Source: a virus | Length of the DNA stretch: 37,793 bases | IMG/VR virus record: IMGVR_UViG_3300028584_000490 | Coordinates: 1 to 37,793 of that record | Reading direction: 5' to 3' (one strand) | Shown: in pieces, positions 2,858-33,781 of the stretch | Layout of the letters: every line of letters starts with the position of its first letter | How positions within the stretch are numbered: the first letter of the stretch is position 1 | Notes under the pieces: generated by a model | Databases searched by the model: none | What the model was told of the DNA's origin: nothing | The model's input: the letters and a program-made list of their open reading frames with translations, nothing else | Program-made: the position numbers and the translations under genes

Positions 2858-3057
2858 TGAAAAAGCTATCAGATAGTGTTCGTCCAATCCTAACATACCT
2901 CTTTGCTGTTTTATATATTGTAGTGAGTACATGGGGGGTATGGATTGGTAAGATTGAGTTTCAAATCTACTTTGCACAAGTTGGCACAATGGTGGGGATG
3001 ATGGTATCGTTTTGGTTTGGTGAAAAATCAGCTTTGAAAGACCCAAGGGGGGAATAG
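2854..3057 (+). CDS. Holin candidate (67 aa, two TM helices, charged C-terminus)
   Basis: Two predicted TM helices (PILTYLFAVLYIVVSTWGVWI and FAQVGTMVGMMVSFWF), then EKSALKDPRGE. It overlaps the endolysin stop (GTGATGA) and lies between the endolysin and the spanins. Confidence 0.7.
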   Translation: MMKKLSDSVRPILTYLFAVLYIVVSTWGVWIGKIEFQIYFAQVGTMVGMMVSFWFGEKSALKDPRGE

Positions 3058-3059
3058 AT

Positions 3060-3404
3060 ATGGAGCCTATAACATGGATTACGTTTTTAAAGAGATATTG
3101 GAAATTAGCTTTGGTCTTTGTTGTCTTATCGCTATTATCTATTTCACTGGTATGGATGATGATCTCAAACATTAATTTACAAGCTGATAATAGGGTGCTT
3201 AAATCTGAACTACTAAGTATTACTTCACAGTTGGAACAAAGCGCCAAAGAATATGAAACGGCTATGAATGAGTACACAAACAATATTCAAAAAATAAACA
3301 CGGTGTATTTGGATCGTGTGAAAACTATCTATAACATACAAGGAGATAACGATGCGAATGATTGTAATGACACTGCTTTTGTCCTCAATAGTATTGAGTA
3401 TTAG
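3060..3404 (+). CDS. i-spanin (Rz-like; N-terminal TM helix plus coiled coil)
   Basis: N-terminal TM helix WKLALVFVVLSLLSISLVWMMI, then a helical periplasmic region. The lipoprotein gene overlaps its 3' end in another frame. Confidence 0.7.
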   Translation: MEPITWITFLKRYWKLALVFVVLSLLSISLVWMMISNINLQADNRVLKSELLSITSQLEQSAKEYETAMNEYTNNIQKINTVYLDRVKTIYNIQGDNDANDCNDTAFVLNSIEY

Positions 3405-3585
3405 CGGATGTTTTGGCTGTGAGCCACAAGTGATCAAGTGCGTCACGCCACGCGTAGAAAAGCCCATCGTGAGCAATAAGCTCTATGAGGATAGTTTTCA
3501 GGGTGCGAAGCAGTGCGCTATGAATTACTATGCTATGAAGAAGTATGCGGAACTGTTGGAAGAAGCGAATGGGGTTTGTCGTTAA
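3352..3585 (+). CDS. o-spanin (Rz1-like outer-membrane lipoprotein), overlapping the i-spanin by 53 nt
   Basis: Signal peptide MRMIVMTLLLSSIVLSISG followed by Cys (lipobox I-S-G-C). It is a small protein and shows the classic overlapped spanin arrangement. Confidence 0.75.
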   Translation: MRMIVMTLLLSSIVLSISGCFGCEPQVIKCVTPRVEKPIVSNKLYEDSFQGAKQCAMNYYAMKKYAELLEEANGVCR

Positions 3586-3600
3586 AAACAATCCTATATC
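3581..3600 (+). promoter_or_regulatory. Late-block motif copy a (GTTAAAAACAATCCTATATC)
   Basis: One of four related intergenic motifs. It spans the o-spanin stop and ends 35 nt before ATG 3636. Confidence 0.5.
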
Positions 3601-3951: not shown

Positions 3952-4464
3952 ATGGCAAGTATCGCAAGCACTGATGAGGGGATCACCGGGGTTAAACCTA
4001 GTTATCAAGATCCATTACTGGATACGTTTCGTGAGCTGATGGATGCAGCTAGAACATTTTGCGTCGAAGAGCGTGATGCTGGACGTATTACCCATAAAGA
4101 GTACGCAATGCTGTATTTGCAGACATTGCAAACGTGCATCACAACATCGGCACAGTTAGCGCGTGATGCTGCTGAGCAAGATTTTAAGGTTGCAAATTTA
4201 TTGGATCTTGATAAACAGATCAAAGAGCAACAAGTCAAGCAGCTCAAAGTCGAAGTGGCGCTGAAAACGACGCAAAAAAATCAGATCGAGCAATCGGTGT
4301 ATGATAATAGGCTCATCAAGATCGAGGGCGATTTGGCGGATATGACGGGGATGATCCTCAATGGTGGAACGCAAGCGGTTCCCGCTGGATTGGCAACAAG
4401 TCTCACTAATGCTATCGCTACGCTGGTGGCGATCCCTAAAGAAACTGTGACTATTGAGGCATAA
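3952..4464 (+). CDS. Hypothetical late protein (170 aa)
   Basis: Tightly packed after 3636..3950 (TAATATG). No motif recognised. Confidence 0.5.
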   Translation: MASIASTDEGITGVKPSYQDPLLDTFRELMDAARTFCVEERDAGRITHKEYAMLYLQTLQTCITTSAQLARDAAEQDFKVANLLDLDKQIKEQQVKQLKVEVALKTTQKNQIEQSVYDNRLIKIEGDLADMTGMILNGGTQAVPAGLATSLTNAIATLVAIPKETVTIEA

Positions 4465-4466
4465 TC

Positions 4467-5582
4467 ATGGCTGATATAAGTTATGGTGGCGGCGGTGGAG
4501 GCGGTGGGTATTATCCTCCGAGTTTTGATCCTAATAACCCGATGGGTGGTGGCGGTGGCGGTGCTATCCCCGTATTAAGTCCTGAGCAGCAAGCTTATGT
4601 AAATAATCTATCGTATGCTGTTTCTCATGTAAGTACCCTTGATCCCTCTTTTAACTCAGATTATTTTTCTAGTAATTTTAATGCTCAAAACCCCTATACT
4701 CAATATTATGATGCTACGGCTGCAAATACTCTTGCAAGTGTTTATTATAATATAGGATCTTATGGGAATGAATATCATATTATAGGATATACCTATTCAA
4801 ATGTTCATGGGAAAGACTATATTGATCCAATATATCGTGTTTATGATAATGCTTTTAAACAATTTGAAGCCGCTACTACCTCCGCTCAAAACACCTATTT
4901 ACAGCAACAAACAGATGCCAATAATGCTGCGATTGATGAGGGTCAGGATCTCTATGTTAAATCGTTTGGTAATATTAAAAACCCCTCGATCAAAAGCGAC
5001 ATCGCTACACTCTCGCAACTCAAAGAGCTTTACTCACAGCTGCAATTTCAGCAAGACATCACGCAATATCTCAACCGTGTACCGGATGTCAATAATATCA
5101 ATCAAATGCTTGATTTGGAAAATCGTATCAAGAACATGGAAAGTAATCTCTCTAAGGAGCTAATGGATTATTGGCGGCAGCAAGAGATCCTTAAGAAAAA
5201 AGAGAATGAATTTTTTACGTGGGATTTTAATTGGTTATCTGATCCTTATTTTGGAAAAGGTGGTGGAGCTGGGCAGCAGTTATATCAACTCTATTTGCAG
5301 CAAGAGCAATTTTTGGCAAATAACAACTCGATGATCTCGGATGGATCGATCTATGATTGGATGGCGGGGGGAATATATCTAAATTCAGTTATGCCAGGTG
5401 GTGATCTAAGCGCTCCGTATATGCCCAATGATTATTACAGTGTAGGGCTGCAATATCAAGTTACGGGGACGGATCTCAATGAGGGTTCAAAGATACTCGA
5501 TCCTTGGAGTTCTATGGCTGGGGGTGCATCGTTTGGGTTAAACTCTAGCAGTCGTGCAGCATATCAAGTGTTGGAGTTGTGA
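4467..5582 (+). CDS. Low-complexity late protein (371 aa): poly-Gly N-terminus, N/Q/Y-rich body
   Basis: MADISYGGGGGGGGYYPPSFDPNNPMGGGGGGA followed by N/Q/Y-rich sequence (QNPYTQYYDA, QQLYQLYLQQEQFLANNNS). It sits in the late block. Confidence 0.55.
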   Translation: MADISYGGGGGGGGYYPPSFDPNNPMGGGGGGAIPVLSPEQQAYVNNLSYAVSHVSTLDPSFNSDYFSSNFNAQNPYTQYYDATAANTLASVYYNIGSYGNEYHIIGYTYSNVHGKDYIDPIYRVYDNAFKQFEAATTSAQNTYLQQQTDANNAAIDEGQDLYVKSFGNIKNPSIKSDIATLSQLKELYSQLQFQQDITQYLNRVPDVNNINQMLDLENRIKNMESNLSKELMDYWRQQEILKKKENEFFTWDFNWLSDPYFGKGGGAGQQLYQLYLQQEQFLANNNSMISDGSIYDWMAGGIYLNSVMPGGDLSAPYMPNDYYSVGLQYQVTGTDLNEGSKILDPWSSMAGGASFGLNSSSRAAYQVLEL

Positions 5583-5636
5583 AAAGCAATCTCATTGGTA
5601 CGATAAGATAGTAGTAATTTATAGTAGGAGTGTATT

Positions 5637-5936
5637 ATGGGTGAGCAAAGCTGGTATAGCGGATTGGGTGATTGGTTTGGCAATGCTGCCTCCGGTGCTA
5701 AATCATGGCTTGGAGATGGTAAGAATTTGGCTGGGCTTGGTCAGATTGTTGGAGGGCTGGGCGGTGCTTATGCTGCTAATGAGCAAAGCAAAGCCGCTAA
5801 AGCTATGTTGGACTTGCAAAAGCAATCTTTTTATGATGAGAAAGATCGTCGCAAAAAAACACAACTCACGCTAGATGATGCGTTTAATACAGCTGTTCCA
5901 CTCGTCCCGGCTCCTAAACTAACACTGGGGGCATAA
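5637..5936 (+). CDS. Small glycine-zipper protein (99 aa)
   Basis: GLGDWFGNAASGAKSWLGDGKNLAGLGQIVGGLGGAYAA. SD TAGGAG lies upstream of ATG 5637. Confidence 0.55.
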   Translation: MGEQSWYSGLGDWFGNAASGAKSWLGDGKNLAGLGQIVGGLGGAYAANEQSKAAKAMLDLQKQSFYDEKDRRKKTQLTLDDAFNTAVPLVPAPKLTLGA

Positions 5937-5937
5937 G

Positions 5938-6777
5938 ATGGCTGGTGGTGCAATATTGGATCTTAACCCCTCTCTCATCGGGTATTTGGGCGGGTATGGA
6001 CGTGCGGCAAAATCTATCGGTGATTCGATGGTGGGTGTTGGGCAGTTACAGTTGGACGATAAAAAACGTATTGAAGATGAGCGGATACGAAATGCGACAC
6101 TGAATCTCGCTACTAATGCGGATAAGAGAGCGCAAGATGCTCAGGATTATACGAAGCAGAGAGATTTTGAGACAAAGAATGATAAGTTTAATTCTAATGC
6201 TGCTAATAATGCTTTTTTACTAGGGCAGGATATGCCCCAAGAGATGAGCAATGAGTATGCAAAACTTTCACTGATCGATCCAGCGACTACGGCTGCGATG
6301 CTCAAAAGTGATAAAGAGAAATATGCCGGAACTGCTGGGGGTATAATCTTCAACACTGGAACGGGTGCTATCGCCGGGGATTATCGGGATAAATCAGATA
6401 GCAGCGGGTTTGGCGGCAAAGGTGTTACTCATGTCGATACAATCCAGGGCGGTAAAGTAATGCGTACTTTTATGAACCCAACAACCGGAGAGACTAAGAG
6501 CATTGTAGTCGGTGGGACTCCTACGGGTGTTTATGGGATGCAAGTAGCGGATGGTATTGGGGATGGTAATACAGCGCAGCGACCTAAGATCACTAATACT
6601 ACCACTCAGGAGATTGGCGGTACTAATGTGATGGCAAAGGGCGGTATGCCGATCACATTTGCTAAAGATCCTAAGATCGCAGCGGAGCAAAAGAAGTGGG
6701 CATTGCCTATCGAGGGCGGTGGCTACTATGTGCCTCGTGATATGACGGCTGCTTATAAGAAAGCATTTCCGCGTTAA
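5938..6777 (+). CDS. Hypothetical Gly-rich late protein (279 aa)
   Basis: ATG follows the upstream stop by one base (TAAGATG). Gly-rich segments are present. No family recognised. Confidence 0.55.
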   Translation: MAGGAILDLNPSLIGYLGGYGRAAKSIGDSMVGVGQLQLDDKKRIEDERIRNATLNLATNADKRAQDAQDYTKQRDFETKNDKFNSNAANNAFLLGQDMPQEMSNEYAKLSLIDPATTAAMLKSDKEKYAGTAGGIIFNTGTGAIAGDYRDKSDSSGFGGKGVTHVDTIQGGKVMRTFMNPTTGETKSIVVGGTPTGVYGMQVADGIGDGNTAQRPKITNTTTQEIGGTNVMAKGGMPITFAKDPKIAAEQKKWALPIEGGGYYVPRDMTAAYKKAFPR

Positions 6778-6779
6778 TC

Positions 6780-6798
6780 GTTAAAACCCATCCTATAC
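6780..6798 (+). promoter_or_regulatory. Late-block motif copy b (GTTAAAACCCATCCTATAC)
   Basis: Identical over 19 nt to 32084-32102. It begins 3 nt after stop 6775-6777 and ends 32 nt before ATG 6831. Confidence 0.55.
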
Positions 6799-6830
6799 AG
6801 CGGGTACACTAAGAAAAAAAAGGTGTACTC

Positions 6831-9800
6831 ATGGCTGATGTATGGTCACGACTCGGTATCAAACCCTATGAAGCCGATCCTAAAAAAGTAAAACTCACTC
6901 TCGAAGATGCTCCCAAGGTGGAAGCGAAGCCACAAGCACAAGATACGAGCCGTAGCATTGGTCAAATTATCCTCGATACCGATGCACAGTTTGGCCAGGG
7001 TGCCGGATCACTCGTGCAAACATTCGGAGATTTGGGGCAGCTTGCTACGGGTAATAAAAACTCTCTTCAATCGTATGGTCAAGAGGTCAAAGACTTCTAT
7101 GGCAATCTTCTCTCCCCTCAATACAAACAAGAAGGTAAAGACGTATCGGCTGCGATCAAAGCAAAAGATGGAGAGATCGCGCAAGCGGTTGAGGCTATCA
7201 AGCAATATGCTACACATCCCTCGCAGCTATCGGGTGCAATTGTAGGATCAATCCCGGCTATGGCTGCGGGCGGTGTCCCTGGTAAAGTGCTGGGATTGGG
7301 TGCTGGTGCATTGGGAATTGGAGCTACGGGGGTTACGCGTGCCTCTATCGGTGGGGCTGCTGCGGGTGAATCAGTAATACAAGGTGGTCAAACGGGGGGC
7401 GAAGTGCTACGCGGTGATTTGAATCAAGCTGCAAATTCCGATTGGACTCCTAAGTATTCCCAAGAAGAGATACTAGATCGTGCGCGTACTGCTGCGCTGG
7501 GTTCTGCTGCTACTACTGCCCTCACCTATGCGATCCCTGGATCAACAACAATCGAAAAAGCATTGTTGGGTGTTGAGAATAAAGTGGGAAGCCGCGCTGT
7601 TAATACGGCTAAGGGTTTTGCGGGTGAAATGGGTCAAGAGGGAATCCAGGGTGGTACAGGGCAAATGTCTCAAAACTATGCCGAAGATAAACCACTCACG
7701 CAAGGTGTCGGAGAGGTTACTGCAACGGGCGCTCTCATCGGTGGGATCATGGGTGGTGGTATGGGGTTTGCCAATAGCACATCCAGCGCACCACAAGCAG
7801 CCCCTAAAAAACCTAGTGAGACGATCAACGTCGAAGAGGAAGTAAAGAGCGAAGCAAAGAAGCAAGCTTACACCTGGGCTACGCAGCGTGAGGGCGAAGT
7901 ACGTCAAGAAGCAGCGCAAGCAAAGGCGCACGTCAATGAAATGCTCAATAACGGGTTAGATCCAAAGAGTGTACGTGCTACGCTGGATAATCTCATCACG
8001 CCAAGTGCAGCCGATGTGAAACTAACTCAACTGCTCAATGAGGGTACGATCCTACCCTCTAACATGACGGGTATGCGTATCGTGCCTCTCATTGAAGATA
8101 CGATACAAGCCTCTATCGATGCGCCGGAACTTGCCCGTACCAATCAAGAACTAGAATCGGTACTCAAACAAGCGGGCATGAGTAAACGTCTCACGCAGAT
8201 CATTACTGCTGCGTATGCTGCTAAAGATCCTCAAATACTCAAAGATCACATCCAAGAGACACTTGATGGTAATACGCATGAGTTTGTCGATCATGCACCG
8301 ATCCAAGAAGCGATCATGCAGCAAGTAGCACAGCTTGACGAACAACACGCGATACAAATGGAAGCTATCAAGCAGCAAGAGGAAGAACAAAAAGCTATCG
8401 AAACGCTATCAAATGATAGCGAAAGTGTAGCGGTTGAGCCGAAACAAGAAGAGGTAATTTTTAAGCCCGCACAAGGGAAGCGTGCAGTGCGCGGTGAATT
8501 GTTTGATCTACCTTTTGGATACAAAGGTGTTATTGTTAAGAACCAGGCGGGGGATGCTGCTGAACTGTATGAGTATTCCACGGGATCACGTTTGTCGGGG
8601 TATAGTGCTGGTACAAGCTGGAAGCTAGATGAGTCTATTGCCGAGGCGCGTAATAAAATGGAACGTACCGGGGAAGAAAAGCTCGCGCAGCATTTTGAAG
8701 AGATTAAAAATGATAGAGGTATCACTAACACTGAAATCGTTTATGCTAAAGCTCCTACTATTACCAAAGAGAAAGAACTTGTAACAATAGAATCATTTAA
8801 TCGAGATGGAATAGCAATTGAAGTAAGCGGAACACCAATTAAGCTTTCAAATAATATCAATGCTATTATCACTAAACGTGATGATGGTTGGCATATCACT
8901 GAATCTGATGTAGGCGCACCACTAGGCGGAGGCAAAACAAGAAAAGAGGCTATTGATGCTGTTAATAATTCTATTCAGAAAATAGGAATTGAAAAATATT
9001 CAACACTTATTGAAAAGAAAAGAAAAGAATATGACATATTTCGTCTCCCTATTGAGGAAGTAAAGCAGTTCTTTAATGGGATGGATGCTAATGAAAAGAT
9101 AGAGTTTTCAAAGTCATGGGGCAGCAATACGCCTGAATGGTGGGCAGATAAAAATTGGGATGATTTAAGAAGCGATCAGCACGATGCACTTAAAAGCGTA
9201 TATTTAGGTCATAATAGAAATAAGAGTGATACAATACTAGATGATACTAAAACAATATCAAAAGATACTAAAACAACACTAAAAGGGGTGAAAGATGAAG
9301 AAGTACAACCAATTCGAGGCAATGATGGCGCTGGAAGCGAAGATACCGGATCAACAACGGTACGACCTGATGAAGCAAGTAACCCAAGGGGAAGCGATGC
9401 TGCCCGCGATGGAGGCATCGATGGAGAGACGAAAGGCGCAAGCAATGTTGTCGGAGCAGTACGATCACCTAAATCGGATATTGGGAACAGTGGCGGGGAT
9501 GATGCAGTATCCCAAGGAACTGAGCCAATGGAACGATACGCAGCCCCTAGCAGTGATGATACAAACGCTGCCGGAGTTGGAATCGACACAGTGGTATCAA
9601 GCGGTGGTGAACAAAATCTTAACCTAGAGGGCAAAGATCCTATCATACTTACAAGAGGTCAGCGTAGAGATATAAACTACCAGGCAAAAGCCATTCTCGA
9701 AAAAGGTGCGCCATACAGCGAAGCCGACAAAGAGATCCTACGCCAATACACCGGAGAGGGCGGGTTGGTATCCTCTAAAGAATCTCTCACACAACACTAC

Positions 9801-12800
9801 ACACCGTATCAAACGATCAAAGCCATTTATAACGCTCTCGATGTTGCGGGGTTTGCTCCCAAAACTGCATTAGAGCCAGCGGTGGGAAGCGGGAATTTTG
9901 TCGGGTTTCGTCCTGATCTCGCGTGGACGACTATCGACATCGATAAAACCAATCACGAGGTTGTCAATGCGCTGTACCCAAAAGCCAATAACTATCATAA
10001 CGGGTTTGAAGAGTTTAAGGGCAAAGGGTTTGATCTCATCATCTCCAATGTACCGTTTCTCGAAGAGCGCGGCGCGGGACTGCTCAAAGATCGTAAAGAC
10101 ATTAAGATGCTGCACGATTACTATTTTGCAGCGGCTATGGATAAGGTCAATGATAATGGGATCGTGGCGTTTGTCACGTCCAAGGGGACTATGGATAAGT
10201 CCGATGGTGCTATTCGTAAAGAGGTAGTGAGTCGGGGCGATATTATCGGAGCGTATCGTTTGCCTAGTGGTACGTTTTCTAAAAATGCGCATACCGATGT
10301 TGTCACCGATGTGATCTTCATCCAAAAACGTCCGGAGGGTGTGGAGCCTAGAGAAGAGCGTGCGCGTGACAATGAGGCGTTTGTGTCCTCTACCAAAACA
10401 GCTGATGATATATACATGAATACCTATTTTCAAAACCATACGTCCAATATCCTGGGCGATGTTAAAGCGGGGATCGATAAAGCCTATGGCCGTCCCGCGT
10501 ATGAGATCACGGGTACACCGGATTACAGCCGCATGAAGATCGACTATGCAGCGTATGGGAAAGAGAACCAAAAAGATGCAGCCAATGAGACACAGACTAT
10601 CCCTACAAACAGCAAAGAGTTTAAACAGTATGCCCAAGATAACGCGATTGAGTACACCAGCCATAAAGGTAGTGGGATCGTTATCGATGGTAGCAATGTT
10701 TTAGCGCAGCGTGAAGTGGAGTTTTCGGACATCGATCAAAAGGCGTACTATTATGAGCCATTAACGGACAAGGGGTTGTCCGATAAGATCCTAGCCCTGG
10801 ATAAGATCGTAGCAGCGGGTGAGGCTAATAACCTCGAAGAGGGGACAAAGCTCATCGATGCCTACAAAGCAGCGTTTAAAACCCACCCTAAGAAAGATAA
10901 AGCCCTGGGCAAAGCATTGCGCGAAGCGGGGGAAGATCAGAAGGTGTATGAGTATGGTAGTTTGTTTAATGATAAGTTTATACCTAGTGATATATTCCGT
11001 GAGCAGACACGCTATACCGGAAGCGGTAAAGCAGATATAAGCGAATCATCCCCACTCAAAGAACGATTATTTTACTCCGAGAACAACGAGGGTAAGCTCA
11101 ATATCAGAACCTCAAAGCTCCTGGATATGGATGAGTTCGGGGATATGCTCAAAGATGATAACTATGCCTATATTGGAGAGTTTAGCGTACAAAACAAGAT
11201 CCTCTATTACAGCGGCAATATCTATGATAAGATCGATGAGATTACTAAGATCCGGGATCAAAATTTAGGGGTTAAAAAATACGATGATGCAATCAGTGAG
11301 AAGCTCGATCTTCAACTCAAAGCACTCGAAGCCATACTGCCTGAACCCAAGAAGGTGGATGAGATCGAGTTTAAGGGAATAGAGAAGTGGATCAGCGATG
11401 CGGGGATCGAGATCCCGTTTAAGATGGTCAAGAAAACAGAGAAGCTACGCGACAATGGCGGGACTAAGACAACAGAGGAATGGCAAAGCGGATACGGTAA
11501 TATTTTTGATAATTACCTAAACGGCAAGCAGCTTATCTCAGCAAAACAAGATGAGTCAATGGCCTCGTTTAAAAACCGTTTGCGCGAAGCACAGCAAGAA
11601 GTGGCAACGGTACAAGACAAGTATCGTGCCTGGCTGTCAAGCAAGGGGCATACTGAGGCGTTTGAGAAAGCCTATAACAAACGCTTTAACGGATACGTGC
11701 AGCCGGACTATCTCGCAGCCTCGTACCTGATCCAGGACACACTCGATGCGCTGCCAAAAGAACTCACACTGCGCAGCAATCAGATCCAATGGATCATGCA
11801 AGCATATTATGAGGGTAAGGGGATCAATGCGCATGATGTTGGGGGCGGTAAGACGTTGGCTGGGATCGTGTTGGCAAAAGTCCTCAAAGATAAAGGGGCT
11901 GCTACAAAGCCGATCTTTGTTGTGCCGTCCAAGGTTATCAAGAATTGGGTTAAAGAGATCAAGCGTGCCGTACCGGATGCGAAGATCGTGGATTTGGGGA
12001 GTCTCTCAAAAGATAAGCGCGAATCGATGCTGCACGATTTGGCAAACACCAATGCCGATTATGTGCTGATTTCAAAAGAGGGTTTCCAGGCGCTCAAACT
12101 GCCGCTGCAAAAAGAGATCGATTATGCAACGCAGCTGTTACGAGAGAATTTGCAAAACGATAACCTAACCGGACGTGCTGAACAAGTAGCCAATGAGAAA
12201 GTAGAGCGCTATTTGGCGGTACTAAGAACCGATAATAAAAACAAATCGATCACGATTGACAAGCTGGGGATCGATGCCGTGTTCGCCGATGAAGCACGCA
12301 GCTATAAAAATATTGGGGTTAGCAGTGATCTTGTCGGTAATAAGCTGGGTAAAGCGTTTAGCATGAAAGAGAACGAGAAAACTAAGACCGTAAGTATCGA
12401 CAGTGCTATGGCGTATGATTTTCGTTTTAAAACCCGCTACATCGCAGAGCGTAACAATGGGCGTAATGTATTCTTACTCGATGCAACACCTACACCAAAC
12501 AAGCCTATCGAGATCTTCACGATGCTCAAACACCTGGACAATAATATATTCGATGAGTATGGGATCACTACGGATCGTGATTTTGCTAATATGTTTTTTG
12601 AGTTTGGGATTAAGCCTACTAAGACGGGGGGCATGGATAAAGGGTTGATCGCGCTTAAAAATGCGTTTGGACTCAAAGGGATCATGAATCGCTACATCAA
12701 TCGAATCAGCATGGCAGATTTTGCCAGCCAAAAGATCATCGATCTACCCGAAGAGAAAGTGATTAACCACTACCTCGATCAAACCGATGAGGGCGATATA

Positions 12801-14111
12801 GTGTTTACGGATATTGCTAAACGTATGCAAGAAGCAAAAGCCGATAAAGAGAAACGTAAAGAGATACCAGGGATATTTAGCAACGGGATCACGGCAAGTG
12901 TCGATCCAAGATTGTATCAGCGTATGGGGATCACAGACATACTTGATCCTACACCGGATAATCATAAGATCGCCAAGGTGATCGATCTCGTTCTATCCAA
13001 ACGCGGCATCGATGCGAAGTCGGGGCAGATCATATTCCTAGACAGTGCCGGGCATACGGCAAGTGATACGAATGTAAAGGTAGATAAGACAACGGGAGTC
13101 GAGACTGTTTATGCTGCTACCCTGGAACAAAACCTACACCGTGATATGAAAGATAAGCTTATCGCTAGTGGCAAATATAAAGCTAATGAGATTGCTATCC
13201 TAAGTGGCCAGGAGATCACTGATCCAAGAACGGGTAAAGAGACGGGAGCTACGGGCGATAAAGCGCAGCAACTCAAGCAAGATATTGTTGATGCGTATGA
13301 TGCCGGGCAAGTTAAGGTAATCATCGGAACAACTAAGAGTGCGGGTGAGGGGATGAATATCCAAAAGTTTACGACGGATATTTACCACATCGATCTACCC
13401 TGGACGATTGCCGAAGTAATCCAGCGCAATGGGCGTGGGGTACGGTTTGGTAATCAAAACGCAAGTGTAAACCTACACTACTTTTTCCAGGCGGGGACGT
13501 TTGACTCTCTCATGTATAAAACAGTCATGAATAAAAAAGGATGGAATGAGGCGCTATGGGATACCAAAGTAGAGGATCGTATGGAAGTCGTGGACGAGGG
13601 TGGATCGATGCCAAGTCCAGCGGAGATCATGTTAGCTATGGAAAAAGATCCTATTAAGAGGAGACAATTAGAACTAGAGATCGAATACCAGCGCCTCAGT
13701 GATGAATATAACAATGTTACCGATGAAGTTAAAGCCATCGAGCGCAGAATATCAACCATAACAACAGAGCAGCGCGACGAGGGCAATAAGCAACGTGATC
13801 TCGAAGCACGTATGAAAGATCCAACGCCTACGCTAGAGCTGCGTGAGCTGCAAGAGAAGATGCACAAAGAGCCTAAGAAGTACAAAGCAAAGTTTGAGGA
13901 AGTCCAGGCGCGCGTTAAGAAGAGCCAAGAGGGTATGCACGCGCAACGTGTAGCTAAGATGGAGAATCTCAAGAAAGAAGAAGTGCGACGATACGAAGCA
14001 CTCAAAACAGCGAGAGAGAATCATACTAAAGTCGCGGGCGAACTAAGAGATTTTGAGGATAAGTACATGGATAACCGGGGTAATTTTATAGCTGAAGTGG
14101 AGTGTGCGTAA
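6831..14111 (+). CDS. Giant polyvalent protein (2426 aa): N-terminal glycine-zipper region, tandem small modules, acidic G/S/D disordered linker, N6-adenine DNA methyltransferase domain, SNF2/DEAD-type helicase domain, C-terminal coiled coil (P1 DarB-like architecture)
   Basis: Uninterrupted 7.3 kb ORF. MTase motif I EPAVGSGNFVG (nt ~9873) and motif IV DLIISNVPF (nt ~10044). Helicase motif I DVGGGKTLAG (nt ~11835), motif II FADEARSYKN (nt ~12288), motif III LLDATPTPN, motif V GTTKSAGEGMNIQ, and motif VI QRNGRGVRFGN (nt ~13422). Confidence 0.85.
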   Translation: MADVWSRLGIKPYEADPKKVKLTLEDAPKVEAKPQAQDTSRSIGQIILDTDAQFGQGAGSLVQTFGDLGQLATGNKNSLQSYGQEVKDFYGNLLSPQYKQEGKDVSAAIKAKDGEIAQAVEAIKQYATHPSQLSGAIVGSIPAMAAGGVPGKVLGLGAGALGIGATGVTRASIGGAAAGESVIQGGQTGGEVLRGDLNQAANSDWTPKYSQEEILDRARTAALGSAATTALTYAIPGSTTIEKALLGVENKVGSRAVNTAKGFAGEMGQEGIQGGTGQMSQNYAEDKPLTQGVGEVTATGALIGGIMGGGMGFANSTSSAPQAAPKKPSETINVEEEVKSEAKKQAYTWATQREGEVRQEAAQAKAHVNEMLNNGLDPKSVRATLDNLITPSAADVKLTQLLNEGTILPSNMTGMRIVPLIEDTIQASIDAPELARTNQELESVLKQAGMSKRLTQIITAAYAAKDPQILKDHIQETLDGNTHEFVDHAPIQEAIMQQVAQLDEQHAIQMEAIKQQEEEQKAIETLSNDSESVAVEPKQEEVIFKPAQGKRAVRGELFDLPFGYKGVIVKNQAGDAAELYEYSTGSRLSGYSAGTSWKLDESIAEARNKMERTGEEKLAQHFEEIKNDRGITNTEIVYAKAPTITKEKELVTIESFNRDGIAIEVSGTPIKLSNNINAIITKRDDGWHITESDVGAPLGGGKTRKEAIDAVNNSIQKIGIEKYSTLIEKKRKEYDIFRLPIEEVKQFFNGMDANEKIEFSKSWGSNTPEWWADKNWDDLRSDQHDALKSVYLGHNRNKSDTILDDTKTISKDTKTTLKGVKDEEVQPIRGNDGAGSEDTGSTTVRPDEASNPRGSDAARDGGIDGETKGASNVVGAVRSPKSDIGNSGGDDAVSQGTEPMERYAAPSSDDTNAAGVGIDTVVSSGGEQNLNLEGKDPIILTRGQRRDINYQAKAILEKGAPYSEADKEILRQYTGEGGLVSSKESLTQHYTPYQTIKAIYNALDVAGFAPKTALEPAVGSGNFVGFRPDLAWTTIDIDKTNHEVVNALYPKANNYHNGFEEFKGKGFDLIISNVPFLEERGAGLLKDRKDIKMLHDYYFAAAMDKVNDNGIVAFVTSKGTMDKSDGAIRKEVVSRGDIIGAYRLPSGTFSKNAHTDVVTDVIFIQKRPEGVEPREERARDNEAFVSSTKTADDIYMNTYFQNHTSNILGDVKAGIDKAYGRPAYEITGTPDYSRMKIDYAAYGKENQKDAANETQTIPTNSKEFKQYAQDNAIEYTSHKGSGIVIDGSNVLAQREVEFSDIDQKAYYYEPLTDKGLSDKILALDKIVAAGEANNLEEGTKLIDAYKAAFKTHPKKDKALGKALREAGEDQKVYEYGSLFNDKFIPSDIFREQTRYTGSGKADISESSPLKERLFYSENNEGKLNIRTSKLLDMDEFGDMLKDDNYAYIGEFSVQNKILYYSGNIYDKIDEITKIRDQNLGVKKYDDAISEKLDLQLKALEAILPEPKKVDEIEFKGIEKWISDAGIEIPFKMVKKTEKLRDNGGTKTTEEWQSGYGNIFDNYLNGKQLISAKQDESMASFKNRLREAQQEVATVQDKYRAWLSSKGHTEAFEKAYNKRFNGYVQPDYLAASYLIQDTLDALPKELTLRSNQIQWIMQAYYEGKGINAHDVGGGKTLAGIVLAKVLKDKGAATKPIFVVPSKVIKNWVKEIKRAVPDAKIVDLGSLSKDKRESMLHDLANTNADYVLISKEGFQALKLPLQKEIDYATQLLRENLQNDNLTGRAEQVANEKVERYLAVLRTDNKNKSITIDKLGIDAVFADEARSYKNIGVSSDLVGNKLGKAFSMKENEKTKTVSIDSAMAYDFRFKTRYIAERNNGRNVFLLDATPTPNKPIEIFTMLKHLDNNIFDEYGITTDRDFANMFFEFGIKPTKTGGMDKGLIALKNAFGLKGIMNRYINRISMADFASQKIIDLPEEKVINHYLDQTDEGDIVFTDIAKRMQEAKADKEKRKEIPGIFSNGITASVDPRLYQRMGITDILDPTPDNHKIAKVIDLVLSKRGIDAKSGQIIFLDSAGHTASDTNVKVDKTTGVETVYAATLEQNLHRDMKDKLIASGKYKANEIAILSGQEITDPRTGKETGATGDKAQQLKQDIVDAYDAGQVKVIIGTTKSAGEGMNIQKFTTDIYHIDLPWTIAEVIQRNGRGVRFGNQNASVNLHYFFQAGTFDSLMYKTVMNKKGWNEALWDTKVEDRMEVVDEGGSMPSPAEIMLAMEKDPIKRRQLELEIEYQRLSDEYNNVTDEVKAIERRISTITTEQRDEGNKQRDLEARMKDPTPTLELRELQEKMHKEPKKYKAKFEEVQARVKKSQEGMHAQRVAKMENLKKEEVRRYEALKTARENHTKVAGELRDFEDKYMDNRGNFIAEVECA

Positions 14112-16291
14112 TGGGTTGTGATTTAAAGAAGAGAAAAGCGCAGTATGATAGCCTCGTAGATAAGATGTTTGGGAAGCTTGAAGATTGGAATAGTATCGAT
14201 AAGACGTTTGACAAGTTAGAAGGTGGGCTGATCGCTGCGGATAAGTACGTCGTGAACAAAGTCAATGCCTCACAAGAGAAAGTAAAAGTAAAAAATCTGT
14301 TTGCAATCCATGAGACAGAGCGTGTTTTCAGTGAATGGATGCGGGAGTTGCGTATCCAAAAGCAGATGATCGCGGATCGTGCGCAGCAGACACAAGAGTT
14401 TTTGCAAGGGTTGAGTGAAGAACATAGCGAGCAGCTGGTGCGTGCACTCAATGGTGACATCGATGCGATCACACTGCCACAAGAACTGCGCGGAGTCTAT
14501 GACACGTTTCGTGAAGCGATCAATAGCAATGCTAGAGAACTCGTAGAGCTGGGTGTACTCAAAGAAGAGAACATGATAAGCGATTACCTCAAACGCTACT
14601 ACAAAGATTTCCTCGATACGAGCGGCAGCGGTAAGGCGTATTTTGACAAGCGGTTTAAAGCACGTAAAGACTTGACGCATGATGAACGCCTGGCAAAAGG
14701 GATGATCGAAGATGCAAGCTATGTGATCCCTAAGACAATGGCAGATCAAAAGCTCCAAGCACTCAAAGCAAAAGTGTTGCAAAGCATCGCCGATAAGTTC
14801 GGGAAAGACAAAGAAGAAGAGGGATATGTCCAGGTTCCGGATACTACTGTGGGCGGTGGGGTTAAAATGTACGGAGCATTATCGGGTAAATATGTACCCG
14901 AAGAGATCCTATCCTCTCTCAAGGGGGCATCGTTCGCACGCAAGCAGCTAACTGCTTGGGAGGGGTGGGTTGGTTTCATCGATCATATTAAGGTTAATAT
15001 GACGGTCAAGAATCCATTTACCCACGTTTATAATGTAGGATCAAATGTTCTCATGTCGTTTTTACATGGAGACGTGCAAGCCCTGGGTCGTGTTTTGGAT
15101 ATGGCGCATCGGGATAAGGTAAAGTTTCGTGCGTTGGTCGAAGAGGCAAACAAATACGGGCTTAATACGCTTCTGGGAGATATGGAAGATCAACTCGTCC
15201 TGGATGAGAATGGAAGCCCTAGCCTCATCAAGACGATTGCTAAAAATCTCTACATGACACAAGACTCTAAGATGGGTAAAGGGATGCGCAAGGCGTATGA
15301 GTGGGAGGATAAGATCTTCAAGCTTGCAGCGTTTGAGGGCAATATGAAAAAAATGCGTGAAGAGCTGGGGCGAGAACTAACCGAAGATGAGAAGCGCACC
15401 GCGTTTCGTGAAGCGAATGAGGCGTATGTTGATTATGACTCTCCGCTGCCGGATGGTGTTAAGCTATTGGATAAATCCGGGTTGTTTCCGTTTCTCCACT
15501 ATACTTGGAAATCATCGCCCGTAGTTGCCAAAGCTGCACTCAAACATCCGGTACGGTTTGCGATCATGCAAGCGGCACTCATCGGTTTGGGAGCCTCGGC
15601 ATGGTTTGGGGACGATGATGATGATCTAAAGCCGGGTTGGGCTGCTAGTCAATGGAATCTATTGGGATCTAAAGAGTGGGTTAATCTCCATAATGGGCTG
15701 TTTCTCAATGCGGGTCGTCTCGTCCCTGGTGCGAAGATCGGTGGGCTTGATTTTAGTGGTGGGTTTATCGGTGGTATGATTAACATCGGTGGAGGTAAGA
15801 CTACGCTTGGGTATGATTTTGTGAACAAGTACGATACTGTTGGGGAGAGTGTCGTTAAACGTGTAGCGACGTTTGCGGAGAGCTATGCACCTCCTATATC
15901 ACCTATCGGGCGTTATGGGCAGCGCCTAGTAAAGAACGCAATGGGTGAGGGAAAGAAGAACAGCAGCACCGGGGAGATCATGGATACGAAAGAGATCCTA
16001 TCACAGCCGCTAGGGTTACGCAAGTTTGATGCGAAGCATGAAGCGCAGCTCAAAGCCAATGCGATCAAGAATAAATACGTGCGGATGGTAGAAAAGGGCG
16101 AGGATAAAACGGATGCCGCAAAGGTGTATCGTGATGAGCGTCGTGAGCTGATGGATAGTGTAGCGAAACAAAAAGTAGTAGGGTTGAAGCTCGATGATAC
16201 TCCGCCAAAAGCGGATAAGGAAGTGGAAGGGGAAGCAGCTAAGAAGAAAAAGAGTTTGTCGCTGCTAAGTCCGGTGAGGTTGAAGTTATGA
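14111..16291 (+). CDS. Hypothetical large late protein (726 aa) translationally coupled to the polyvalent gene
   Basis: ATG 14111 overlaps the polyvalent stop (TAATG); the track's earlier ATG 14102 is inside the upstream gene. Contains GDDDDDLKPGW and Gly-rich GGLDFSGGFIGGMINIGGGKT. No family recognised. Confidence 0.6.
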   Translation: MGCDLKKRKAQYDSLVDKMFGKLEDWNSIDKTFDKLEGGLIAADKYVVNKVNASQEKVKVKNLFAIHETERVFSEWMRELRIQKQMIADRAQQTQEFLQGLSEEHSEQLVRALNGDIDAITLPQELRGVYDTFREAINSNARELVELGVLKEENMISDYLKRYYKDFLDTSGSGKAYFDKRFKARKDLTHDERLAKGMIEDASYVIPKTMADQKLQALKAKVLQSIADKFGKDKEEEGYVQVPDTTVGGGVKMYGALSGKYVPEEILSSLKGASFARKQLTAWEGWVGFIDHIKVNMTVKNPFTHVYNVGSNVLMSFLHGDVQALGRVLDMAHRDKVKFRALVEEANKYGLNTLLGDMEDQLVLDENGSPSLIKTIAKNLYMTQDSKMGKGMRKAYEWEDKIFKLAAFEGNMKKMREELGRELTEDEKRTAFREANEAYVDYDSPLPDGVKLLDKSGLFPFLHYTWKSSPVVAKAALKHPVRFAIMQAALIGLGASAWFGDDDDDLKPGWAASQWNLLGSKEWVNLHNGLFLNAGRLVPGAKIGGLDFSGGFIGGMINIGGGKTTLGYDFVNKYDTVGESVVKRVATFAESYAPPISPIGRYGQRLVKNAMGEGKKNSSTGEIMDTKEILSQPLGLRKFDAKHEAQLKANAIKNKYVRMVEKGEDKTDAAKVYRDERRELMDSVAKQKVVGLKLDDTPPKADKEVEGEAAKKKKSLSLLSPVRLKL

Positions 16292-17404: not shown

Positions 17405-18043
17405 ATGGTTATTACAGTAGCTCATCAAAAAGGTGGTGTGGGGAAAAGTACGATCGCTAGTAATTTGGCGGTCGAGTATTTCAAAACGTATGGGGATCGT
17501 CTCACGGTTGTGGATTTGGATACGCAGCGATCATTGACGTATTTTAATAATATACGAAAATACAATGGAATCCAAGAGCTGCCGATCGTCCAGGTGAAGA
17601 GCGCGGATGAGCTTACGGCAGTGATTAAAGCAAACAAGGGATTGATCCTCATCGATGCTGGAGGGTTTGATAGTGATGTGAATCGTGTGGCGATGCTGCA
17701 CGCGGATCGGATCATCACTCCGGTGAGCGATAGCAGCTTTGAGCTGGGTGGGTTGATGATGTTTCGCGGGATCTTGCGAGAGCTTCGTGCTGCTCGTCCT
17801 GATCTTGTCGCTACTGTGCTGCTCAATCGGGTGCATCAGTTCGCGGGGAAGAGTTTGGAGGAGATCTTCGACTTTGCTCGCAGCAATGAGGAGTTTGGTA
17901 TTTTTGAGACGATCCTACGAGATCGAGGGGAGTACAAACGTGCGACGGAAAATGGAAAGAGCGTTGTAGAGCTTGTGAGAGACGGCAAAGCAGCGCAAGA
18001 GATCACTAATTTGATGGAGGAGATGGATAATGAACAAGTTTAA
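17405..18043 (+). CDS. parA: ParA-family partition ATPase (small, type Ib-like, 212 aa)
   Basis: Deviant Walker A HQKGGVGKSTIASNLA. AGGAGG at 17393-17398. It is followed by an overlapping small RHH gene. Confidence 0.85.
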   Translation: MVITVAHQKGGVGKSTIASNLAVEYFKTYGDRLTVVDLDTQRSLTYFNNIRKYNGIQELPIVQVKSADELTAVIKANKGLILIDAGGFDSDVNRVAMLHADRIITPVSDSSFELGGLMMFRGILRELRAARPDLVATVLLNRVHQFAGKSLEEIFDFARSNEEFGIFETILRDRGEYKRATENGKSVVELVRDGKAAQEITNLMEEMDNEQV

Positions 18044-19474: not shown

Positions 19475-19714
19475 TTATTTCTTTGGGGTATTTCGTTTAT
19501 CTTCTGATGGGAGGACTTGTTTTGCTGATCCGTCAGGGTTGTAGATTACCTTTATATCATCGGTGAATTTCATTCGTACCATTGTCCCTAAAAACTCCTG
19601 AAACACTTCACCCGTATCATCATTGATAATGGTAAAGCGTTCAGAATCTTTTACATAGACCCATTTCGCGTTGGCGCTTACTATGATCAGTGCTGCTAAT
19701 ATAATTTTTTTCAT
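19475..19714 (-). CDS. Small exported protein (79 aa, Sec signal peptide)
   Basis: MKKIILAALIIVSANA then KW (AxA cleavage-like site). ATGA overlap with the repressor stop. Confidence 0.6.
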   Translation of the reverse strand: MKKIILAALIIVSANAKWVYVKDSERFTIINDDTGEVFQEFLGTMVRMKFTDDIKVIYNPDGSAKQVLPSEDKRNTPKK

Positions 19715-20361
19715 CCGTGATACTCCATTGTGTAGATTACTTGCCCTAATATTTCTATCTCATCTTTTTTAATATTAAATTGTGGGTAGTCGGGGTTATC
19801 ACTTTTTACGATCAACCCATTATGGGCTACAAATAGCCGTTTAACAAAGATCTCATCGTTCATGCGGATAATAAAAATTTTGCCGTTTTTAATTTCGTGT
19901 TGGAGCTTATCAACGAAGATCATATCTCCATCGTTTAGGGTTTGGTTCATACTATCACCACTTACTTTTATCGCTTCAATAAGCTTGGAAGAGGTGCGTG
20001 GCAATAGGTTGTGATCCACAAAGATCATATCATACTCACAATGATCCCCATTAAGACATCCAAATCCAGCTGATGCAGATATATCCTGGAAAAGTTTTAC
20101 TGCAATTTTTCCTACTGGCGCATCATCTCCAAGATTTAGGCGAGGGGAGATCTTCATCTCACCCAACCCATAGAAGATATATTCTAAATTTGCATCTGTA
20201 TCACGCAAATTATTGACTATTGCTTCATGAGGGATAGCATTTCTTCTTTTTCTCTCGTAAATATTTGCTGCTGTTAATCCAATAATTTGTGCTATTTCTT
20301 TGTCATCTGTAACTTTAAAAAAAGTTTTTAAGCGCAATAGCACATTATTTATGTCATTCAA
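19711..20361 (-). CDS. CI/LexA-like phage repressor (HTH + S24 peptidase autocleavage domain)
   Basis: N-terminal HTH (KEIAQIIGLTAANIYERKRRNAIP). S24 catalytic Ser in VSGDSMNQTL and Lys in EIFVKRL. It is divergent from an XRE gene. Confidence 0.85.
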   Translation of the reverse strand: MNDINNVLLRLKTFFKVTDDKEIAQIIGLTAANIYERKRRNAIPHEAIVNNLRDTDANLEYIFYGLGEMKISPRLNLGDDAPVGKIAVKLFQDISASAGFGCLNGDHCEYDMIFVDHNLLPRTSSKLIEAIKVSGDSMNQTLNDGDMIFVDKLQHEIKNGKIFIIRMNDEIFVKRLFVAHNGLIVKSDNPDYPQFNIKKDEIEILGQVIYTMEYHG

Positions 20362-21885: not shown

Positions 21886-22469
21886 GAGTTCTTAATCTAT
21901 ACGCTGGAATTGGCGGGAATAGAAAACTATGGGGGGGGGACATTCAAGTGACTGCCGTTGAATTCGATCCATCCATTGCAGAAGCATATAAAGATCGTTA
22001 TCCAAATGATACTGTAATTGTTGGATGCGCTCAAAAATATCTTTTGGAAAATTATAGAAACTTTGATTTTATATGGGCATCCCCTCCATGCCAATCTCAT
22101 AGCACTATCATAAACTCACAATACACGAGAGATAACTACAACGCAAAATTGCCTGATATGTCACTCTATCAAATAATTTTATTTTTACAAGGTCATGGCA
22201 GAAAAATTAAATGGGTTGTAGAAAATGTAATCCCATATTATGAACCTCTTATAAAACCGACTTCAAAAATTGATAGACACTTGTACTGGTCAAACTTTGA
22301 TATTCCTAGTATTGATGTTGAGAAAAAACATATTATTAAATTTGTTACGATTGACACACTAAAAGATTTTGATATTTCAAAGTATTCAGGAATAAAAAAT
22401 AAACGACAAGTTATCAGAAACCAAGTTGATTACCAAGTAGGCGCATATATTTTTGGATGTGCTCTATGA
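21882..22469 (+). CDS. Compact DNA cytosine-5 methyltransferase-like protein (195 aa, minimal target-recognition region)
   Basis: Motif I LNLYAGIGG. Motif II TAVEFD. Motif IV ASPPCQSHS (catalytic Cys). Motif VI WVVENV. R-containing DRHLYWSNF. C-terminal RNQVDYQVGAYIF resembles motif X. Only about 35-40 residues lie between motif VIII and the C-terminal motifs. The gene is AT-rich relative to its neighbours. Confidence 0.7.
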   Translation: MRVLNLYAGIGGNRKLWGGDIQVTAVEFDPSIAEAYKDRYPNDTVIVGCAQKYLLENYRNFDFIWASPPCQSHSTIINSQYTRDNYNAKLPDMSLYQIILFLQGHGRKIKWVVENVIPYYEPLIKPTSKIDRHLYWSNFDIPSIDVEKKHIIKFVTIDTLKDFDISKYSGIKNKRQVIRNQVDYQVGAYIFGCAL

Positions 22470-27508: not shown

Positions 27509-28044
27509 TGGAAAAAAATCAAAAAATAGCACTTGATCTATGGTTGGGTACGGCTACGCTATTTAATGATTTTAAGCCATGCACGGATCGTGATTTGTGT
27601 ATTGAGCTGGGGCATCTCGATATAGAGGTCACGAAGTCTACTATCGCTAGGTGGAGAGAGAAGTTTGATTTTGCGGGACACTTGCAAAACAAGATCAGCG
27701 CGTCTATGGTAACGGATGCCACTACACGAGAACTGATCGCAAAATCCGCAAGTGATGCCGTGATCGAAAAGACAATCGTGGACATCGAGCGCAATGGTAA
27801 GTTATCCGGATTGGCATACTCAATCCTGGAAGCCAAAGCGGAGATGATCATGCTCAAATACGAAACGACAAAGATCGTCAGCGATAACGATGCGAAGATC
27901 GCTGTACAGATTGCACAACTCACTACGGGGCGAGAAGATAGGATGTTGGATCGTGCAGCGATGCTCGATACTGCCAAGATGATCAGCAAAGAGGATATAT
28001 TGGCGGGGTTTGATTCACTTGCGGTGGATGTGGAGATCGAATGA
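27508..28044 (+). CDS. Small terminase subunit candidate (178 aa)
   Basis: The call rests mainly on its position upstream of TerL. It has an N-terminal HTH-like segment (DIEVTKSTIARWREKF) and a helical middle. ATG 27508 overlaps the upstream stop (TAATG). Confidence 0.45.
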   Translation: MEKNQKIALDLWLGTATLFNDFKPCTDRDLCIELGHLDIEVTKSTIARWREKFDFAGHLQNKISASMVTDATTRELIAKSASDAVIEKTIVDIERNGKLSGLAYSILEAKAEMIMLKYETTKIVSDNDAKIAVQIAQLTTGREDRMLDRAAMLDTAKMISKEDILAGFDSLAVDVEIE

Positions 28045-32083: not shown

Positions 32084-32102
32084 GTTAAAACCCATCCTAT
32101 AC
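32084..32102 (+). promoter_or_regulatory. Late-block motif copy c (GTTAAAACCCATCCTATAC)
   Basis: Identical to 6780-6798. It ends 39 nt before the portal ATG 32142. Confidence 0.55.
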
Positions 32103-32141
32103 GTAGCGTACTCTTTGGAAAATAAAACCCAAGGGTACATT

Positions 32142-33767: not shown

Positions 33768-33781
33768 TTGTGTAAAAACAC

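Follow-up and report, generated by a model that had tools for sequence, protein, structure and literature searches.

A DarB-type methyltransferase–helicase between N4 gp50-like terminal modules: a candidate ejected anti-restriction protein of a small temperate Campylobacterota phage

The IMG/VR virus record IMGVR_UViG_3300028584_000490, which was analysed over its full 37,793 bp and is called the window below, is a complete circular assembly of a small temperate phage of Campylobacterota that devotes about a fifth of its length to a single giant gene (positions 6831–14111, + strand). We propose that the product of this gene would be packaged in the virion, ejected and tethered to the host membrane, where it would act against restriction in the manner of phage P1 DarB. 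Its N6-adenine DNA methyltransferase (MTase) and SNF2 helicase would be the cargo of a delivery chassis of the kind found in gp50, the virion RNA polymerase (vRNAP) of phage N4, and a 726-amino-acid (726-aa) partner encoded immediately downstream would serve in packaging or ejection. We consider this reading probable, if well short of certain. DarB-like polyvalent proteins have been described in the late operons of podophages since 2011–2017, so the core of the finding is not new; what is added here is the recognition of conserved terminal modules and of their natural separation in this genome.

A DarB-type methyltransferase–helicase cargo

The giant open reading frame (ORF) runs from an ATG to a TAA stop codon and encodes a polyvalent protein of 2426 aa (19.4% of the genome) in which an N4 gp50-type N-terminal domain (NTD), a middle region and an acidic linker precede a DarB-type MTase–SNF2 dyad. 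An earlier sequence-only reading of this DNA had recognised the size of the gene, N6-adenine MTase motifs and a full SF2/SNF2 helicase motif set, and each motif that it quoted is found once in the protein, just where it had been placed. These are EPAVGSGNFVG (aa 1015–1025) and DLIISNVPF (1068–1076) in the MTase, and DVGGGKTLAG (1669–1678), DEAR (1820–1823), TPTPN (1886–1890), GEGMNIQ (2172–2178) and QRNGRGVRFGN (2198–2208) in the helicase.

Hidden Markov model (HMM) searches returned significant matches to the same domains. The MTase domain (9651–10535, + strand) is of the EcoKI/TaqI-like gamma class, with motif I LEPAVGSGNF and motif IV SNVPF; scanned alone, it matches the Pfam family N6_Mtase at 31.7 bits against a cut-off of 20.4 (E 1.3e-7), a match that a scan of the whole protein misses. 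A five-sequence profile of this region matches the structures of BsaXI, EcoKI M, BseCI, TaqI, CamA and BrxX. The SNF2/SF2 helicase, a double-stranded DNA (dsDNA) translocase by family, occupies 11631–13700 (+ strand) and carries motifs I (GGGKT), II (DEAR), III (TPTPN) and VI (QRNGRGVR). Pfam assigns SNF2-rel_dom to aa 1651–1752 (3.7e-13) and Helicase_C to aa 2141–2207 (1e-8), together with ResIII, and the PDB matches are Sso Rad54-like, ISWI and SMARCA proteins. Among the PHROG families, the giant protein matches ‘DNA methyltransferase’ (5e-138) and ‘DarB-like antirestriction’ (2.7e-108).

The likeness to P1 DarB (2255 aa), which the sequence-only reading had named as the model for this architecture, is borne out by three colinear BLASTP blocks (E 1e-15 to 7e-20) with 23–46% identity within blocks, so that the homologous dyad stands in the same order in both proteins. 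The blocks pair giant aa 945–1168 with DarB aa 47–276 (MTase), 1534–1974 with 733–1198 (helicase N-lobe) and 2156–2238 with 1467–1548 (helicase C-lobe). P1 DarB also has NVPF rather than NPPF in motif IV, a substitution that therefore marks the family and does not point to decay. Furthermore, the core of the giant (aa ~820–2300) is ~25% identical over ~1300 aa to the giants of VvAW1, Bcep22, JC1, DC1 and LASTA, phages of Vibrio, Burkholderia and Klebsiella, and to some others.

Closer relatives, about 40 proteins of 2.1–2.4 kaa with 40–63% identity, come from Campylobacterota, and those that bear a name go no further than ‘helicase-related’, ‘SNF2-related’ or ‘putative helicase’. Nearly all of ~39 relatives retain MTase motifs I and IV, and most of those nearer to the giant retain helicase motifs II and VI, which argues that the enzymes are probably active. 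A megablast search of the giant gene against 50,697 phage records gave no match.

The remaining parts of the cargo are less easily named. A conserved helical region before the MTase core, common to DarB and VvAW1, may correspond to LPD36; Pfam reports neither LPD36 nor another LPD domain in the giant protein, even at E ≤ 1 on the segment. The inter-domain region of the dyad (10536–11630, aa 1236–1600, + strand) matches no Pfam family and is colinear with VvAW1 gp01 and with the related prophage L006, introduced below. Behind the helicase lies a charged tail (13701–14108, aa 2291–2426, + strand; E16 K16 R11 per 100 aa), probably a coiled coil, whose Pfam matches are weak coiled-coil ones and nothing else; this tail is a candidate docking site for the 726-aa protein.

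The N-terminal domain is homologous to that of N4 gp50

The first subdomain of the NTD (6948–7790, aa ~40–320, + strand) is a helical bundle with glycine-zipper helices, homologous to N4 gp50 ~103–447. BLASTP aligns giant aa 135–304 with gp50 235–432 (E 1e-5), and the aligned part of gp50 covers its predicted membrane-spanning region (224–278). PHROG_2206, ‘virion RNA polymerase’, is matched at 2.9e-17 with aa 107–534 aligned to profile positions 191–607, and an HMM of the NTD (152 hits) scores gp50 103–447 at 44.5 bits.

An exhaustive phmmer search with aa 1–540 over 1.84 billion cluster representatives yielded 275 matches, nearly all of them near protein N-termini and most in proteins of 1,000–5,000 aa. 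The best 150 of these 275 include seven N4-like vRNAPs, with the RNA polymerase (RNAP) domain and the N4 C-terminal domain (CTD) both present, four DarB-like MTase–helicases and 11 proteins with the PBECR/LPD cargo of the syntenic contig L005 (see below); 28 are hit reciprocally by the N4 NTD. A Pfam scan of 21 other NTD-bearing giants found LPD38 (n = 11) and ART-PolyVal (n = 3), and also LPD39 or LPD37; such giants are the polyvalent proteins of Iyer et al. A tblastn search of the NTD against phages gave no match, and a word-indexed homologue search also found nothing, probably because glycine-rich words filled its candidate list.

The glycine-zipper stretches that had drawn attention to this N-terminus are indeed present, at aa 140–168 (nt 7248–7334) and aa 300–314 (nt 7728–7772), although they are not the peculiarity they were taken for, since they belong to a module of a widespread chassis. 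From an alignment of 26 sequences, AlphaFold2 (AF2) confidently models aa 43–314 as a helical bundle (pLDDT 80–94) with helices at 130–160, 165–201 and 293–314, in which the glycine-rich stretches form long helices. This model matches the first fragments of giants in BFVD, including those of Escherichia phage PTXU04, Ralstonia phage Alix and A0A6J7WQ13.

A weaker helical subdomain follows at aa 334–529 in the AF2 model (subdomain 2; 7830–8420, aa ~334–530, + strand; pLDDT 50–80). It is ~50% identical to its counterpart in the PBECR2/LPD1 protein of L005 and matches 27 of 39 clade members, L006 among them, and is thus conserved whatever the cargo.

The middle region (8451–9290, aa 541–820, + strand) is variable and was assigned no function; it has no Pfam hit at E ≤ 1 and, among ~39 clade relatives, is common only to P0284, P0285 and P0125. 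By eye, nt 8466–9065 (aa 546–745) may hold two repeats of ~85 aa, each a run of beta-strands and then a helix (e.g. GKTRKEAIDAVNNSIQKIG). An internal duplication of aa 545–745 was rejected, as its score of 42 was not significant against shuffles (27 ± 4.8, maximum 48).

Between this region and the MTase lies an acidic low-complexity linker rich in G, D and S (9291–9650, aa 821–940, + strand; G19 D14 S13 of 120). It had been put at ~100 aa and thought unusual; the linker is there, at ~120 aa, and what it does is parallel gp50, where a ~100-aa low-complexity linker (907–1006) separates NTD and enzyme (PMC13434306). The resemblance is one of architecture, without sequence homology. An equally low-complexity acidic stretch stands at the same position in L006.

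The C-terminal module is encoded by a separate, coupled gene

In N4, the CTD is part of the gp50 polypeptide; in the window, the corresponding module is found on a separate ORF (14111–16291, + strand). Its ATG at 14111 overlaps the TAA of the giant gene by one base (TAATG), as expected from the translational coupling proposed earlier. Its description as a protein of no known kind, on the other hand, has to be given up, because it is the conserved C-terminal ‘bookend’ module of giant phage proteins, made as a polypeptide of its own.

The core of the 726-aa protein (aa ~280–500, nt 14948–15610) corresponds to N4 gp50 3198–3451. The protein matches PHROG_2206 at profile positions 3241–3365 of 3406 (E 4.9e-10), and tblastn leads to Vibrio N4-like vRNAPs and to a 2044-aa prophage giant of H. 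pullorum, in each case at the extreme C-terminus. A local jackhmmer search through intermediates joins aa ~280–500 to gp50 3198–3451 at 6e-27, and also reaches pVa5 3025–3304 and all seven vRNAP representatives. By jackhmmer, 22 of 150 NTD-bearing giants have the module, always at their extreme C-terminal end. The occurrence of both modules in the same giants therefore describes a shared architecture of NTD, variable cargo and C-terminal module. The giant is nevertheless not a vRNAP, since the N4 RNAP domain has no match anywhere in the window and the PHROG_2206 match is confined to the terminal regions, and an HExxH motif is likewise missing; only the chassis is shared.

Structure comparison agrees with this placement. 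The AF2 model of the 726-aa protein (pLDDT 77.9) matches in BFVD the last fragments of giant phage proteins (E to 4.5e-24, TM-score to 0.66) annotated as zeta toxin, ART-PolyVal, LPD, helicase or LT_GEWL, and several of these giants are the same ones whose first fragments are matched by the NTD model. Fragment 3 of the Vibrio phage phi 1 vRNAP is also matched.

Homologues of the 726-aa protein form 136 clusters at E ≤ 0.001, and most among the matches listed are free-standing ORFs of 680–900 aa. Some of the free-standing proteins carry a PBECR1, PBECR2 or PBECR3 domain, a predicted RNase: one is encoded at 10001–12565 of L006, and others are P0012, P0016, P0039, P0041, P0043, P0044, P0048, P0050 and P0056. 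The partner, too, can thus bear cargo. We also considered whether the 726-aa protein is the ‘PLxRFG’ domain of the LASTA and VvAW1 giants and dropped the idea, as hhalign against the C-termini of LASTA gp01 and VvAW1 gp01 shows no relation. Processing by a metallopeptidase was likewise rejected, with no HExxH motif in either the giant or the 726-aa protein.

Cargo is exchanged between the same two ends

The clearest view of the chassis comes from two relatives. L005, the closest syntenic contig, shares its ParA, S24 repressor and primase genes with the window, as well as the genes upstream of the giant, but at the position of the giant gene it encodes a 1700-aa protein with PBECR2 and LPD1, not an MTase–helicase. 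The first 24 residues of that protein are almost identical to those of the giant, the equivalent of aa ~345–510 is ~50% identical, and the L005 partner (718 aa) is 61% identical to the 726-aa protein. In L006, a prophage that sits within a chromosomal contig of 415 kb, the DarB cargo (47% identity) is preceded by a first NTD subdomain that has diverged, and the partner has an extra PBECR3 domain.

The two ORFs either overlap or stand 1 nt apart in the window, in L005 and in L006, and giant and partner lie on contigs of identical length in at least 13 pairs. A frameshift error in sequencing was rejected as the origin of the split, with the two-ORF layout kept in relatives that are 47–61% identical; this conservation, together with the prevalence of free-standing ORFs among the listed homologues, leads us to judge the split real. 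Inspection by eye found no slippery heptamer before the stop codon that would fuse the ORFs by programmed frameshifting. Giant and partner are fused in P0123, P0161, P0210 and the H. pullorum giant, a Rosetta-stone pattern from which the two proteins are predicted to act together or form a complex. The earlier suggestion of an ejected machine fused into one polypeptide is thus half retained: homology of both ends to gp50 speaks for ejection, whereas the machine is divided over two ORFs.

The locus is, in effect, a compact natural dissection of a delivery chassis, in which both ends of gp50 flank a wholly different enzyme and a syntenic relative has yet another cargo between the same two ends. 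This pattern points to the parts that gp50 and polyvalent proteins share as those most likely to carry the determinants of encapsidation and ejection, and suggests that they may act in trans. It bears on how proteins of 250–400 kDa are packaged and threaded through a tail channel of ~30 Å, and on the engineering of phages for enzyme delivery. It also puts forward a candidate for anti-restriction in a whole clade of temperate Campylobacterota phages of ~37 kb, a candidate named in the sources searched only ‘helicase-related’, ‘SNF2-related’ or ‘hypothetical’.

Comparison with known delivered proteins

The N4 domain as a whole to which the C-terminal module belongs, the gp50 CTD, is the region needed for encapsidation. 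At the other end of gp50, residues 224–278 are predicted to span the membrane, and the NTD by itself was shown to enter nanodiscs (PMC13434306). In current models gp50 is anchored at the inner membrane by NTD and linker while its enzyme acts on entering DNA (PMC13434306), and transcription by the anchored enzyme has been proposed as the motor of genome internalisation (PMC13492108; PMC13434306). The giant thus shares with gp50 a homologous NTD with membrane-inserting helices in N4 and, through its partner, a homologous extreme C-terminal subdomain (3198–3451); like the giant gene, the gp50 gene stands at the end of the virion gene block. N4 differs in being a lytic schitovirus of ~70 kb, as against a temperate genome of 37.6 kb.

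In P1, DarB is carried inside the head and guards injected DNA in cis against type I restriction (Iyer et al., 2017; PMC5512222). It starts almost directly with the MTase, without the ~940-aa N-terminal part of the giant. P1 is also a myovirus, and its packaging of DarB depends on DarA, Hdf, DdrA and DdrB.

The podophage giants, Bcep22 gp75/JC1 gp69 (4515 aa), VvAW1 gp01 (3640 aa) and LASTA gp01 (4433 aa, ‘PLxRFG’), share the MTase–helicase core. In VvAW1, JC1/Bcep22 and LASTA the virion module ends with the giant gene, its largest, as in the window, and in Bcep22-like phages the giant gene is followed by small reverse-strand genes, just as such genes follow the giant gene and its partner here. 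Mass spectrometry of purified virions identified JC1 gp69 from 51 unique peptides (PMC9144972). These giants are 1.5–2 times longer than ours, have extra domains (SLT in DC1) and are single polypeptides, whereas the window has a separate C-terminal ORF. The termini of VvAW1 gp01 and LASTA gp01, which were the two compared (Bcep22 and JC1 lay outside the comparison), do not match the NTD and C-terminal profiles of the window.

As a class, polyvalent proteins are large polypeptides of disparate domains, and the giant fits this description in joining a membrane-type NTD, an N6-adenine MTase and a SNF2 helicase. The class includes an EcoKI/TaqI-like MTase directly N-terminal to a SWI2/SNF2 ATPase, the same dyad as in the giant and the third most prevalent module of these proteins (Iyer et al., 2017; PMC5512222), and relatives of the giant carry PBECR, LPD1, LPD38 and ART-PolyVal domains. 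The terminal ‘bookend’ modules do not appear as named domains in the portion of that paper considered here. A further giant polyvalent protein with a different cargo, gp47 of Stx phage phi24B (2811 aa; LPD5/LPD1/LPD38/MuF-C), is abundant in virions, invisible in cryo-EM and was proposed in 2026 as an ejection protein (bioRxiv 10.64898/2026.04.10.717836); it is likened to the giant here by description, not by sequence.

A delivery model and its alternatives

In the model that we favour, the giant and the 726-aa protein would both be packaged in the virion. On infection, the NTD with its glycine-zipper helices would leave the capsid through the tail and insert into, or associate with, the inner membrane as part of an ejection conduit. 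The ~120-aa acidic linker, predicted to be disordered, would tether the cargo to the NTD, so placed that the MTase–SNF2 dyad would meet incoming phage DNA at its site of entry. There, like P1 DarB with type I systems, the cargo would shield the entering DNA in cis against restriction by the host; translocation along the DNA together with its methylation is the most plausible means. The 726-aa protein would be the C-terminal module of the chassis, made in equal amounts as a separate polypeptide; by analogy with the N4 CTD, it would bind the giant and supply packaging, ejection or both in trans.

Several observations weigh against this model. Packaging, ejection, methylation and anti-restriction are each read here from homology. 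Compared in one step, the 726-aa protein and N4 gp50 reach an hhalign probability of 9.5% and the clade HMM scores 14 bits; a strong link between them appears only when a small local database is searched iteratively, by way of intermediates. The 726-aa family also has no match in the PDB (to April 2026, with no full-length N4 vRNAP chain among the matches), by profile or by Foldseek. The hydropathy of the NTD is moderate, with a 19-aa Kyte–Doolittle maximum of 1.3, and membrane insertion therefore leans on the homology to N4. The NTD profile finds nothing significant in VvAW1, LASTA, pVa5, the H. pullorum giant or the L006 N-terminus, all of which have glycine/alanine-rich hydrophobic stretches at a similar position; given VvAW1, LASTA and L006, the DarB cargo is not tied to this NTD. 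Finally, tblastn detects no significant homologue of P1 DarA, Hdf, DdrA or DdrB in the window, which implies another packaging route, one that would run through the NTD and the C-terminal module.

A wider claim can be built on the same evidence, and we regard it as doubtful. The NTD and the C-terminal module would be portable, cargo-independent bookends for packaging and ejection, used by the N4 vRNAP and by hundreds of polyvalent proteins and, in this phage clade, with the C-terminal one supplied in trans, and the DarB-type cargo would stay tethered to the inner membrane at the entry pore, its SNF2 motor reeling in the genome, which is methylated on the way. If true, this would explain why DarB protects only in cis.

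The mechanical part of that claim may also be taken by itself, with delivery as in the favoured model, and here we think it unlikely: the tethered SNF2 translocase would chiefly reel the genome in, the MTase would methylate DNA as it passes and anti-restriction would be a by-product. The giant does have the chassis of NTD and linker on which N4 gp50 carries out the transcription proposed to import DNA, its helicase motifs are intact and conserved, SNF2 enzymes move on dsDNA without unwinding it (Iyer et al., 2017; PMC5512222), and a motor of this kind would again account for the cis-only protection reported for P1 DarB. L005, however, has PBECR2 and LPD1 in place of the MTase–helicase, so genome entry in this group of phages does not require a translocase there. 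The P1 dar mutants that Iida and colleagues described in 1987 reportedly point the same way, in that DarB is said to be dispensable on hosts that do not restrict.

It is quite unlikely, in our estimate, that the giant stays out of the virion altogether and works as a cytoplasmic late enzyme that methylates or remodels progeny DNA before packaging, with the 726-aa protein an unrelated structural protein. Late expression, suggested by a motif shared with the portal gene (see below), would suit such an enzyme, as would a weak PADLOC match to ‘orphan methyltransferase’, and orphan phage MTases commonly act on replicating DNA. What this account leaves unexplained are the ~940 N-terminal residues with an NTD of ejection-protein type, the conserved pairing or fusion with the C-terminal bookend and the swap for an RNase-type domain in syntenic L005; moreover, homologous giants occur in virions (JC1 gp69, P1 DarB). 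A DISARM- or BREX-like defence module, in which the MTase and SNF2 helicase of the prophage would protect the lysogen from other phages, is highly improbable: the phage is temperate (CI/S24-type repressor, ParA) and there are matches to DrmD, DrmA and DpdE (NCBIfam, PADLOC), but these span only ~80–140 residues of generic SF2 lobes at 16–38 bits against NCBIfam cut-offs of 610–1200, no other DISARM or BREX components lie nearby and the gene stands inside a late structural operon rather than in a moron or immunity position, so that membership (DrmD, PglX) was rejected as fragments of helicase lobes with the partner genes absent.

Genome context and late-gene signals

The window ends in an exact 237-bp direct repeat (1–237 = 37557–37793), from which we take the genome to be a circle of 37,556 bp. 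The closest relatives all come from Campylobacterota (Sulfurospirillaceae, Sulfurimonas, Helicobacteraceae, Arcobacteraceae, Campylobacter concisus and C. pinnipediorum), and many of them sit on contigs of 36–38 kb.

The giant gene is flanked by the tail fibre, lysis and virion-protein genes on one side and by the end of the late block on the other. The sequence-only reading had found this position behind a late-type motif unusual. The motif is real, but such a position is the norm, late virion genes being the typical surroundings of polyvalent proteins in phages (Iyer et al., 2017; PMC5512222). The 19-nt sequence of the motif, GTTAAAACCCATCCTATAC, occurs as two exact copies only, at 6780–6798 (+ strand; 33 nt upstream of the giant start codon) and at 32084–32102 before the portal gene, with variants at 3581–3599 (before the ORF at 3636) and ~33770–33788 (before the ORF at 33832). 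All four sites are intergenic, on the + strand and upstream of late genes, and a search allowing up to three mismatches found 3 matches where 0.01 were expected by chance. The motif is probably a late promoter or activator site, and its copies would then be candidates for defining at least four late transcription units. Just before the giant start codon, an inverted repeat (GTACAC-N13-GTGTAC, 6803–6829) brackets an A-rich Shine–Dalgarno region and could fold into a hairpin for translational control.

Three glycine-rich genes of 371, 99 and 279 aa fill the interval upstream of the giant gene (4467–6777, + strand). The 371-aa protein (4467–5582) has two poly-glycine runs at its start, GGGGGGGG and GGGGGG, and the 99-aa protein (5637–5936) has a glycine-zipper stretch, LAGLGQIVGGLGGAYAA. 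None of the three has a family match in Pfam or PHROG, and none resembles the proteins encoded before the giants of pVa5, VvAW1, LASTA and H. pullorum (N4 gp51 and gp52 lay outside this comparison). All three genes are homologous and syntenic directly upstream of the giant gene in L005 and L006. By position, they are candidates for co-ejected proteins, and because they are kept in both relatives the 371-aa and 99-aa proteins may be further ejected or membrane-active proteins.

The other genes were called by PHROG scans. Along the virion module these are, from the terminase on, the large terminase (28836–30362), the portal (32115–33767), the major head protein (34547–35455), a tail fibre that spans the contig ends (off the 3′ end and continuing to 759), the endolysin (2408–2857) and a virion structural protein (3952–4464), after which come more small genes without a family match and then the giant gene and its partner. 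Directly upstream of the large terminase is a PAPS-reductase-like protein (28041–28826; PHROG_424, 5e-40), perhaps with an accessory role in DNA modification or packaging. Between the large terminase and the portal, at 30466–31814, an odd place for such genes, are a small serine recombinase of the DNA-invertase type (30466–31059; PHROG_125, 6e-51) and a protein with weak similarity to replication initiators. No tyrosine integrase was seen among the ORFs scanned.

Finally, a ParA-like partition protein (17405–18043), a CI/S24-type repressor (19711–20361, − strand) and a primase (22457–25123) together suggest a phage-plasmid lifestyle; the related L006, however, is integrated in a chromosomal contig.

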